NCBI GenBank assembly: GCA_041655765.1
Contig: JBBAEU010000003.1
Coordinates: 4,923 to 68,922 of the forward strand
Direction of reading: 5' to 3'
DNA: 64,000 nt
Source: Brumimicrobium sp.
Lineage (GTDB): Bacteria > Bacteroidota > Bacteroidia > Flavobacteriales_D > Crocinitomicaceae
In this document: positions 15,978 to 17,042 of the stretch, in pieces
Layout of the letters: every line of letters begins with the position of its first letter
How positions within the stretch are numbered: position 1 is the stretch's first letter
The notes under the pieces: model-generated
Told to the model about the DNA's origin: nothing
Database searches by the model: none
The model's input: only the letters and a program-made list of their open reading frames with translations
Program-made: the position numbers and the translations under genes

Positions 15978-17042
15978 TTAAATTGAATTTATAAAGTTTT
16001 TAAAATTCATTTGATCCAGCCCTAAATTAGCCATAGTTCGCCCTTCTTTTTTGAAATCTGTTTTTAAAAGTTCAGAAATCAATACAAAAACCGAATTCAA
16101 AAGGGGAGTTTCAATGTTCAACAGCTTTCCTAACTCAATTAAAGGAAGCACGCCAGTCGGAATATCTTCCGTTAACAATCTCGAATTTAATGATTTTGGG
16201 GCATATATCTTATAATAAGCCGGATTATTTTGCATTTTCTCACAAAGTGTAACTCCTCTAATTCCTTGATATGAATAAGAAATCCATTCATTAGCAGAAA
16301 GGAGGGGAATATTTAACGCTTTTCCAATTGCTAATCTTTCACTATCAATAGCTTCAATGAAAGAAGCAATAAGTGGTGTCATGTCATTATAGAAGAAAAA
16401 ATCTTCTCCTCTTTCAATTTTTGCTGCATTGAATAGCACAATAGAAGGATGGAAAATGCAACCGATGTTGTCTAATGAGGTTTCCAAGATATTCTTTGCT
16501 GCAATAAATGAAGGATAAATTTCCTTTAATTTTTCCACCACAAAATCAGTGTCAGCAGATGGAATAGATGCTACTGGTAATTTATCTTTAATTCCAATGA
16601 TTTTAACTTCACCATTACCCTCGGCACGACAAGCGTATAAAAGACTTTGTGTTTCAGCAACGTGTATTTTCTTGTCAGGACAAAGCTGATTAAACACGTT
16701 TCTTACTTCTAAAGCTCCAAAAGTTCTCCCTGGATTTAACACAACAATTTGCCCATCTTTTATAATTGGCGCAAGGTTTAATGCAATCTCTTTGTGTGCA
16801 TTAGCAACAGTTGTTACCATTATTAAATCAACATCTTTGATTACATCCTCAAGGGATTCTGAAATCATATTAATTTTGCCAAATCCAGAAATAGCACCTT
16901 TCAGGACAACTCCATTCGCTTCAATAATAGGTGTTATCTTTTTTAGGTTTCTAGCATATAACCTAACCGAATGCCCTAGATGTGAAAAGTGACCAGCCAT
17001 TGCTTGGCCACCATTTCCTGCTCCGATGATTGCTATTAGCAT
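15978..17042 (-). CDS. NAD(P)-dependent opine (octopine/nopaline) dehydrogenase family
   Basis: IAIIGAGNGGQAMAG, VVLNPGRTFG, AETQSLLYACR, LDNIGCIFHP, RLLTEDIPTG. Confidence 0.9.
   Translation of the reverse strand: MLIAIIGAGNGGQAMAGHFSHLGHSVRLYARNLKKITPIIEANGVVLKGAISGFGKINMISESLEDVIKDVDLIMVTTVANAHKEIALNLAPIIKDGQIVVLNPGRTFGALEVRNVFNQLCPDKKIHVAETQSLLYACRAEGNGEVKIIGIKDKLPVASIPSADTDFVVEKLKEIYPSFIAAKNILETSLDNIGCIFHPSIVLFNAAKIERGEDFFFYNDMTPLIASFIEAIDSERLAIGKALNIPLLSANEWISYSYQGIRGVTLCEKMQNNPAYYKIYAPKSLNSRLLTEDIPTGVLPLIELGKLLNIETPLLNSVFVLISELLKTDFKKEGRTMANLGLDQMNFKNFINSI

Follow-up and report, generated by a model that had tools for sequence, protein, structure and literature searches.

A predicted opine dehydrogenase and B12 mutase pair in a polysaccharide operon of Brumimicrobium sp.

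An opine dehydrogenase gene in a polysaccharide operon

We analyzed a 64,000-nucleotide stretch of the Brumimicrobium sp. assembly GCA_041655765.1 (contig JBBAEU010000003.1, positions 4,923 to 68,922), hereafter called the window, with a focus on one gene that encodes an opine dehydrogenase (ODH) similar to the bacterial enzyme CENDH. The gene stands next to that of a single-chain B12-binding mutase, within an operon that runs along the minus strand from position 21939 down to ~7574 (Table 1). ODH is a member of a known family with a new partner and in a new biological setting, and the best-supported role for it is biosynthesis of an acidic N-acyl substituent.

A first-pass annotation of this DNA had placed an intact octopine/nopaline dehydrogenase-family gene 2 bp from the B12 gene and 8 bp from a GNAT acetyltransferase gene, in a polysaccharide setting. 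The open reading frame (ORF) coordinates agree with that spacing, the gaps between the ATP-grasp ligase, GNAT, ODH, and mutase genes being 2, 8, and 2 bp. The setting is also as described: the operon encodes a DegT aminotransferase, GT56-like, GT1, and GT4 glycosyltransferases, an ABC-2 permease, and a PglK/MsbA-like exporter. The nearest solved relatives of the ATP-grasp ligase are 4DIM and the L-amino-acid ligases 4WD3 and 3VOT. Genes for RmlA, RmlB, and a PduO-type cobalamin adenosyltransferase lie at other places in the genome, and a T9SS sorting domain fits the placement in Bacteroidota.

Table 1. Features of the operon and of the adjoining region of the window
Feature	Coordinates	Strand	Length	Description
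Fused permease/ATPase ABC exporter	20131..21939	(-)		PglK/MsbA/HepA-like; first operon gene
DegT/DesI/VioA-like aminotransferase	18986..20071	(-)	361 aa	Pyridoxal phosphate-dependent; proposed maker of dTDP-4-amino-4,6-dideoxyhexose
ATP-grasp ligase	17701..18924	(-)	407 aa	Proposed to form an amide on the sugar 4-amine
GNAT acetyltransferase	17051..17698	(-)	215 aa	Accessory tailoring gene
Opine dehydrogenase (ODH), CENDH type	15978..17042	(-)	354 aa	Pfam, PDB match, AlphaFold2 model
B12-binding mutase	14131..15975	(-)	614 aa	Single chain, related to glutamate mutase; DIHTLG motif
WecF/GT56-like glycosyltransferase	12835..13956	(-)	373 aa	Candidate for the decorated 4-acylamino-6-deoxyhexose; NF002756, 2.2e-16
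GT1 transferase	11409-12614	(-)		
GT4 transferase	10067-11395	(-)		
ABC-2 permease Wzm	9115-9951	(-)		
451-aa protein	7574-8929	(-)	451 aa	Hydrophobic N-terminal region, no family match
Sulfate-activation genes and epimerase	26187-31075	(-)		Just past the operon

The operon ORFs were also scanned for the families that accompany other opine dehydrogenases. No nicotianamine-synthase family or solute-binding protein was matched among them in Pfam, no CntL-like protein or metallophore import or export family was found in the Pfam and NCBIfam scans, and no opine transporter or regulator of the kind found at catabolic loci appeared in the family scans. The earlier statement that neither a nicotianamine synthase nor an opine transporter lies nearby is in accord with these scans.

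ODH has the fold and catalytic residues of an opine dehydrogenase

The ODH reading frame is uninterrupted from ATG to TAA. Residues 182-325 match the Pfam family Octopine_DH (PF02317) at 137.3 bits against a cut-off of 30 (5.5e-40), and the N-terminal Rossmann domain (residues 3-101) matches NAD_binding_2, ApbA, and related families; its GxGxxG motif, GAGNGG at residues 7-12, is invariant among the relatives. When PDB sequences were searched with phmmer, CENDH (1BG6) was the sole strong match (4e-76, residues 3-345), scallop octopine dehydrogenase (OcDH) was matched at 3e-6, and CntM-type enzymes gave no match at E <= 0.01. An AlphaFold2 model of ODH (pLDDT 91.7) had 1BG6 as its closest fold match (TM-scores of 0.92/0.94, root mean square deviation of 1.8 A, 35% identity). 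TM-scores were 0.76-0.78 to OcDH, ~0.70 to the staphylopine, yersinopine, and pseudopaline dehydrogenases, and ~0.6 to ketopantoate reductases. The Pfam domain, the GxGxxG motif, a His-Asp dyad with its Arg, and the two-domain fold together identify ODH as an intact member of the opine dehydrogenase family, as the first-pass annotation had it. The family comprises 3236 clusters (50% identity) at E <= 0.001 and 740 at E <= 1e-30.

Alignment places the putative catalytic residues H198, R288, and D293 of ODH opposite residues 202, 292, and 297 of CENDH and opposite the His-Asp dyad and Arg324 of OcDH. In OcDH, H212 binds the substrate carbonyl and alpha-carboxylate (PMC6033044), and R324 and the His-Asp dyad have been named as catalytic (PMC2924402). 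The three residues are kept in 76 or 77 of the 77 ODHs from the glycan cassettes described below; in 24 ODHs of Chloroflexota, H198 and R288 never vary, and residue 293 is either Asp (18 sequences) or Glu (6 sequences). From the sequence and the model, we infer that ODH is an NAD(P)H-dependent opine dehydrogenase that condenses an amino acid with a 2-oxoacid.

The fold of ODH is also common to ketopantoate reductases and D-mandelate dehydrogenases (TM ~0.6), and ODH might then be a 2-oxoacid reductase (for example, of 2-oxoglutarate to 2-hydroxyglutarate), with the mutase yielding a branched hydroxy-acid such as 3-methylmalate as the N-acyl group. Glutamate mutase is reported to act slowly on 2-hydroxyglutarate, and hydroxy-acyl groups are frequent among N-acyl decorations. 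However, CENDH is by far the closer structure (TM of 0.92 versus ~0.6), ODH keeps the opine dehydrogenase His/Asp/Arg set together with most CENDH cleft residues (K152, Y276, and R288), and the pyruvate bound by OcDH lies too distant from NADH for direct reduction (PMC6033044). We consider a reductase role improbable and read ODH as an opine dehydrogenase.

The substrate cleft of CENDH is lined by A111, K156, N198, Y259, Y280, R292, and Y293 (PMC6033044), which correspond, in the same order, to R106, K152, G194, I254, Y276, R288, and L289 of ODH. Gln118 of OcDH, which binds the pyruvate carboxylate, aligns with R106. Q132 aligns with Glu142 of OcDH, the residue that holds the arginine side chain, and CENDH has Ser there. 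R106 is present in 77/77 cassette ODHs and G194 in 76/77, and both residues occur in 24/24 Chloroflexota mutase-linked ODHs and in the ODHs of genome G304 and loci L074 and L075. Because the two are near-invariant in mutase-linked ODHs, while Arg occupies position 106 in just 81 of the 136 full-length representatives of clusters in the wider ODH family, they are, by sequence, a subfamily signature of the mutase-linked enzymes. As a candidate annotation marker, the signature also takes in two ODHs, those of L076 and L079, that have no adjacent mutase. The pocket residues R106, K152, N192, G194, H198, N205, Y218, W253, Y258, Y276, and R288 are identical in the glycan and Chloroflexota settings. 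Position 132 is polar (Q or E), which suggests a polar rather than hydrophobic amino-acid substrate. We rejected R106 as proof of a dicarboxylic 2-oxoacid substrate, as its equivalent in OcDH, Gln118, binds the ordinary carboxylate of pyruvate and the Arg may have no further function.

The end of strand beta2 of ODH reads LYARN, with Arg31 and no acidic residue, and that of NADH-dependent CENDH reads AWDID. Because of this difference, ODH here probably prefers NADPH. One subclade of gut Bacteroidales ODHs has LYDID at this position.

The adjacent gene encodes a B12-binding mutase

The 614-residue protein encoded 2 bp from ODH has no Pfam match over threshold. Its DxHxxG cobalamin motif and the fold of its model (pLDDT 88.8), which best matches the glutamate mutase E chain (1CB7_B, 2.6e-12) and then ornithine and lysine aminomutases, uphold the B12 identity given to it in the first-pass annotation. 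Single-sequence and family-profile searches of the PDB returned no relevant solved relative. In three related loci, L026 (12929-13453), L035, and L058, a PduO-type adenosyltransferase gene directly follows the mutase gene, which supports the use of adenosylcobalamin.

ODH and the mutase belong to a conserved cassette in glycan loci

To place the window in context, genomes were scanned at one per species, and 461 relatives were found. Eighty loci, whose ODHs are 44-67% identical to that of the window, were compared; most are from Bacteroidota, and others are labelled Chloroflexota, Patescibacteria, Cyanobacteriota, Myxococcota, and Bacillota. Polaribacter marinus MSW13, Heminiphilus faecis AM35, and Bacteroides pyogenes are among the carriers in culture. 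The mutase gene adjoins that of ODH on the same strand in 72/80 loci, and five of the eight exceptions are contigs that end within 1.3 kb. An ATP-grasp gene is near ODH in 63 loci, with a divergent ATP-grasp in 4 more, and a DegT 4-aminotransferase gene in 55, while GNAT is near in only 9. By these counts (mutase, DegT, and at least 63 loci for ATP-grasp), the neighbors of ODH do not vary at random across genomes. In most of the 80 loci, the genes [4-aminotransferase]-ATP-grasp-ODH-mutase follow one another in this order on a single strand and within a polysaccharide locus. The flanking families are GT2 and GT4 glycosyltransferases, Wzx flippases, phosphoglycosyl transferases, RmlA/B, UDP-GlcNAc 2-epimerase, UDP-glucose dehydrogenase, and PglD-like acetyltransferases. 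We treat this arrangement, which has no established name and is defined by synteny, as a glycan N-acyl decoration cassette, to which the co-oriented and tightly spaced genes of the window belong.

The cassette takes two forms. In form A, that of the window, a DesI/VioA-like DegT gene is followed by the ligase, ODH, and mutase genes. In form B, a small phosphoglycosyl transferase gene precedes the ligase, ODH, and mutase genes, and a LegC/PseC-like aminotransferase gene follows them; in one form B locus (L029), a PglF-like dehydratase is encoded two genes further on. The ligase-ODH-mutase trio is portable between dTDP- and UDP-linked 4-amino-6-deoxy sugars and, since it occurs on two sugar scaffolds, we take it to supply the acyl group and not the sugar. 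Optional genes near the trio encode S-adenosylmethionine-dependent methyltransferases, WbqC, a FemAB-like protein, second or third ATP-grasp ligases, and a sulfotransferase.

A PglK/MsbA-like exporter gene precedes DegT in L001 and L070 as well as in the window. ODH and the mutase of the window are 67% identical to those of L001, and DegT, the ligase, and GNAT are 40-43% identical, which indicates that the cassette modules recombine and that the ODH-mutase pair is independent of DegT and the ligase. An ODH gene was not found in 200 sampled genomes of the same family, and of 400 further genomes sampled from the same phylum, just 1 has the mutase. From this rarity among relatives, we conclude that the cassette is uncommon and moves horizontally as part of variable glycan loci. 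One mutase-less locus (L015, a Chloroflexota metagenome-assembled genome [MAG], 1-17976) has the order Wzm-Wzt-x-DegT-ATP-grasp-x-ODH-GT2. Its 18 kb encode no mutase, and its genes are the smallest set from which an alanopine-type N-acyl sugar would be expected.

Several ODH genes depart from the usual single copy. Tandem ODH paralogues, ~49-51% identical to the ODH of the window, precede the mutase in two rumen Bacteroidales MAGs (L034:10001-12160 and L058:10001-12160), and the cluster representative P0150 (804 aa) joins two ODHs in one chain. In P0175 (460 aa), ODH runs into the N-terminal B12 domain of a mutase, and in P0252 (436 aa), a piece of ATP-grasp is joined to ODH; we did not accept these two as proven natural fusions, as they may be merged gene calls. 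Near-identical ODHs (end branches of 0.016 and 0.023) were found in a MAG labelled Vulcanococcus (Cyanobacteriota; L016) and a Bacteroidia MAG (L017), which suggests either an error in binning or a transfer that took place very recently.

The ODH-mutase pair also occurs outside glycan loci

The pair was also found in other surroundings. In a Bacteroidota genome (G304; L085:7607-11728), the genes for a diverged ODH (41% identical) and a diverged mutase (31%) precede an asparagine-synthetase-family gene, an MscS channel gene, and trehalose synthesis genes; this mutase matches the Pfam B12-binding family and, weakly, Met_asp_mut_E. Among 401 sampled Chloroflexota genomes, 25 (~6%) encode the mutase family, and 24 of the 25 have an ODH gene (34-45% identical) immediately beside it, most often with the mutase gene first. 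A glutamine-dependent asparagine-synthetase-family gene lies within one or two genes of ODH in five of ten wider Chloroflexota loci. Neither there nor in G304 was a sugar aminotransferase gene or a gene of a nucleotide-sugar pathway found next to the pair. The product of the mutase-ODH-asparagine-synthetase trio may be a small amidated molecule, for instance a compatible solute. The neighbors in the Chloroflexota loci L122-L131 (G861, G898, G646, G622, G810, and others) include a mannosylglycerate-hydrolase-like gene and a Usp-GT2 fusion, which, like the neighbors in G304, are genes with stress or solute functions.

The pair is thus joined twice to amide-forming activators of a carboxylate, once of the ATP-grasp and once of the AsnB type. 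This double association favors a free acid made by ODH and the mutase, followed by amide formation.

Cassette ODHs form a clade apart from the opine synthases and plasmid ODHs compared

A maximum-likelihood tree was built from 89 ODHs; CENDH, OcDH, and CntM are not among its rows and were compared by bit scores and TM-scores. All glycan-cassette ODHs fall in one 77-row clade (SH-aLRT 93), in which the ODH of the window pairs with that of L001 (support of 99). Chloroflexota sequences are basal to the cassette clade, and three of them form an Anaerolineae group (L075, L076, and L079). The Ti-plasmid octopine and vitopine synthases (23-27% identical to ODH) are on long branches far outside the clade, as are plasmid ODHs of Arthrobacter, Bacillus, and Acinetobacter, which adjoin GntR or AraC regulators and transporters. 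With scores of 251-275 bits, CENDH is roughly as far from the cassette ODH as it is from one Anaerolineae ODH in a transporter context and from the G304 ODH. On these Ti-plasmid and plasmid sequences, the cassette ODHs do not cluster with opine synthases or catabolic-type enzymes. This tree position and the lack of such a transporter or regulator in the operon scans speak against an Agrobacterium T-DNA opine synthase or opine-catabolic locus; the same family scans and the lack of a CntM match at E <= 0.01 speak against a CntM-type metallophore pathway.

The Anaerolineae loci have neighbors of another kind. Those of L075 are an oligopeptide-type ABC ATPase, an MTTB-family methyltransferase, and the glutamate-mutase accessory protein MutL (PF13941), and those of L079 are a family-5 solute-binding protein, an ornithine-cyclodeaminase-family gene, and an enolase-superfamily gene. 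Such settings bear on the possibility that ODH is a passenger in the glycan operon, catabolic or unrelated to it, and is there by chance: relatives ~45% identical to it (L075 and L079) stand beside peptide/opine-type ABC importers and ornithine-cyclodeaminase-family and enolase-superfamily genes, and the plasmid homologues adjoin GntR regulators and transporters. A passenger, however, is at odds with the 2-8 bp gaps to both neighbors, with synteny kept in 72/80 loci across phyla, with the separate clade, and with an operon in which the family scans found no importer or regulator. The absence of ODH from the 200 sampled same-family genomes further indicates that it arrived with the variable glycan locus. 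We therefore regard a passenger role as very improbable and retain a biosynthetic one.

In the genome of the mutase-less locus L079, a mutase-family match lies inside a 1267-aa open frame (G601:C75:2283-3656), possibly a fusion protein.

A proposed pathway to an acidic N-acyl sugar

We propose, with a probability of about 0.6, that ODH and the mutase make a free opine-type acid that the amide ligase couples to dTDP-4-amino-4,6-dideoxyhexose for a surface glycan. ODH would reductively condense an amino acid and a 2-oxoacid to an N-(1-carboxyalkyl) secondary-amine acid. The adjacent adenosylcobalamin mutase, as an obligate partner, would rearrange the carbon skeleton of the amino acid just before or after the condensation, a glutamate to 3-methylaspartate-type shift being the leading guess. 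If the mutase acted first, the irreversible reductive step would pull the unfavorable glutamate to methylaspartate-type equilibrium. The product of the two enzymes would be a free, polycarboxylic, branched opine-type acid. The DegT enzyme would make dTDP-4-amino-4,6-dideoxyhexose from dTDP-4-keto-6-deoxyglucose, and the ATP-grasp ligase would activate one carboxylate and amide-link the acid to the sugar 4-amino group, with GNAT providing an optional tailoring step. The WecF-like transferase would install the decorated anionic sugar in the surface glycan, and ABC export proteins are encoded in the same operon.

The chemistry of the acid can be named only tentatively. A branched polycarboxylic opine, such as an N-(1-carboxyalkyl)-3-methylaspartate, is a possible candidate and would represent a metabolite class that has yet to be described; it would serve as an anionic N-acyl group on 4-amino sugars in many Bacteroidota and other phyla and, in Chloroflexota, once amidated by an asparagine-synthetase-like enzyme, as a free small molecule, possibly a compatible solute. 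The biosynthetic role put forward in the first-pass annotation, in forming an anionic sugar substituent, is supported by the conserved synteny and by the separation of the clade.

Four points weigh against the proposed pathway. Beyond the opine dehydrogenase fold and the intact catalytic residues, it rests on gene context. The link between the mutase and glutamate mutase consists of the fold and of weak Pfam hits in two distant members, with no solved relative at the sequence level. If a simple aminoacyl group were the substrate of both GNAT and ODH, the two would be in competition for a single alpha-amine. Finally, in L047, the ODH gene comes directly after DegT with no ligase gene between, on a contig that ends 212 bp later, an arrangement that fits direct action on an aminosugar too.

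In an alternative that the gene order of L047 also fits, ODH N-carboxyalkylates, on the nucleotide sugar, either an ordinary amino acid already attached by the ligase or the bare sugar amine, and the mutase rearranges the tethered group. CntM-type relatives take bulky amines. CENDH accepts carboxylate-free amines (phenylalaninol), and engineered variants accept butylamine (PMC6033044); the alanopine-acylated sugar of the Providencia alcalifaciens O35 antigen (cited in PMC10609480) could also form by such a route. Three observations speak for the free acid instead. The same ODH pocket is found in the asparagine-synthetase modules, which have no adjacent sugar aminotransferase or nucleotide-sugar genes; ODH is not longer than CENDH and has no extra nucleotide domain; and the ODH-mutase pair recombines apart from DegT and the ligase, as the comparison with L001 shows (67% versus 40-43%). 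We judge the on-sugar route unlikely and prefer synthesis of a free acid that is then coupled to the sugar.

Additional features of the operon

The Wzm-type ABC-2 permease (7574-9951 region) has no recognizable Wzt ATPase adjacent to it, and a PglK-like exporter opens the operon. The sulfate-activation genes just past the operon encode a CysN-like GTPase, a CysD-like protein, an APS kinase, and a second PAPS-reductase-family protein, and the NAD-dependent epimerase gene lies among them. A sulfotransferase is encoded in some related cassettes (L010 and L020). The glycan may also be sulfated.

Implications

Opine-type acids such as alanopine and carboxyethyl-lysine are known in O-antigens from nuclear magnetic resonance, and the cassette offers a concrete, testable gene set for them. 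Opine dehydrogenases, familiar from crown-gall, muscle-redox, and metallophore biology, would thereby enter the field of surface-glycan decoration, and the fixed coupling to a mutase points to a carbon-skeleton rearrangement unknown in glycan biosynthesis. If the proposal is true, glycan decoration would, to our knowledge, gain its first step that depends on B12, and polysaccharides that bear opines would gain a genetic basis. The surface-antigen structure of gut and rumen Bacteroidales, home of many of the related loci, would then depend on the supply of vitamin B12. The occurrence of the pair apart from sugar-nucleotide genes in ~6% of sampled Chloroflexota suggests a second, small-molecule use.

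In the open literature, with subscription journals outside this coverage, we found no gene assignment for the opine-bearing O-antigen structures and no paper treating glutamate mutase together with an opine dehydrogenase; no description of an ODH-mutase-ligase glycan pathway was found in the open literature either.

Comparison with known systems

CENDH of Arthrobacter sp. 1C (1BG6, EC 1.5.1.28) has the same two-domain fold and a similar length. Its H202, R292, D297, K156, and Y280 are matched by H198, R288, D293, K152, and Y276 of ODH, whereas its A111 and N198 are replaced by R106 and G194. We know of no established natural role for CENDH; unlike it, ODH of the window has fixed pathway partners. 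CENDH was obtained by enrichment on a synthetic opine, and its preferred amino acids are hydrophobic (PMC6033044).

OcDH of Pecten maximus (3C7A, 3C7C, and 3C7D) shares the fold and the same His-Asp dyad and Arg, but it is ~19% identical to ODH, has Q118 for R106 and E142 for Q132, and serves as a muscle redox enzyme. The CntM-type dehydrogenases (6C4T, 6C4N, and 6C4M; 12-15% identity) are biosynthetic enzymes of related fold that finish a specialized metabolite; they work with a nicotianamine-synthase-like enzyme and metallophore transporters, none of which was found in the operon of the window. For the partner mutase, the best fold match is glutamate mutase GlmS/GlmE (1CB7), with which it has the DxHxxG motif in common, and MutL is encoded beside the pair in L075. 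The partner differs from GlmS/GlmE in being a single chain with an N-terminal B12 domain and in having no sequence-level match.

The nearest chemical counterparts are in O-antigens. According to PMC10609480, that of P. alcalifaciens O35 contains 4-{N-[(S)-1-carboxyethyl]-L-alanyl}amino-4,6-dideoxyglucose (alanopine-acylated Qui4N), and that of P. rustigianii O14 carries N-epsilon-(1-carboxyethyl)-lysine on GalA. The O35 sugar bears an opine-type acid amide-linked to its 4-amine, which is the product that would be expected of DegT, the ligase, and ODH. The cassette of the window differs in its added B12 mutase, and for this reason its acid is probably rearranged to a branched form and is not alanopine.

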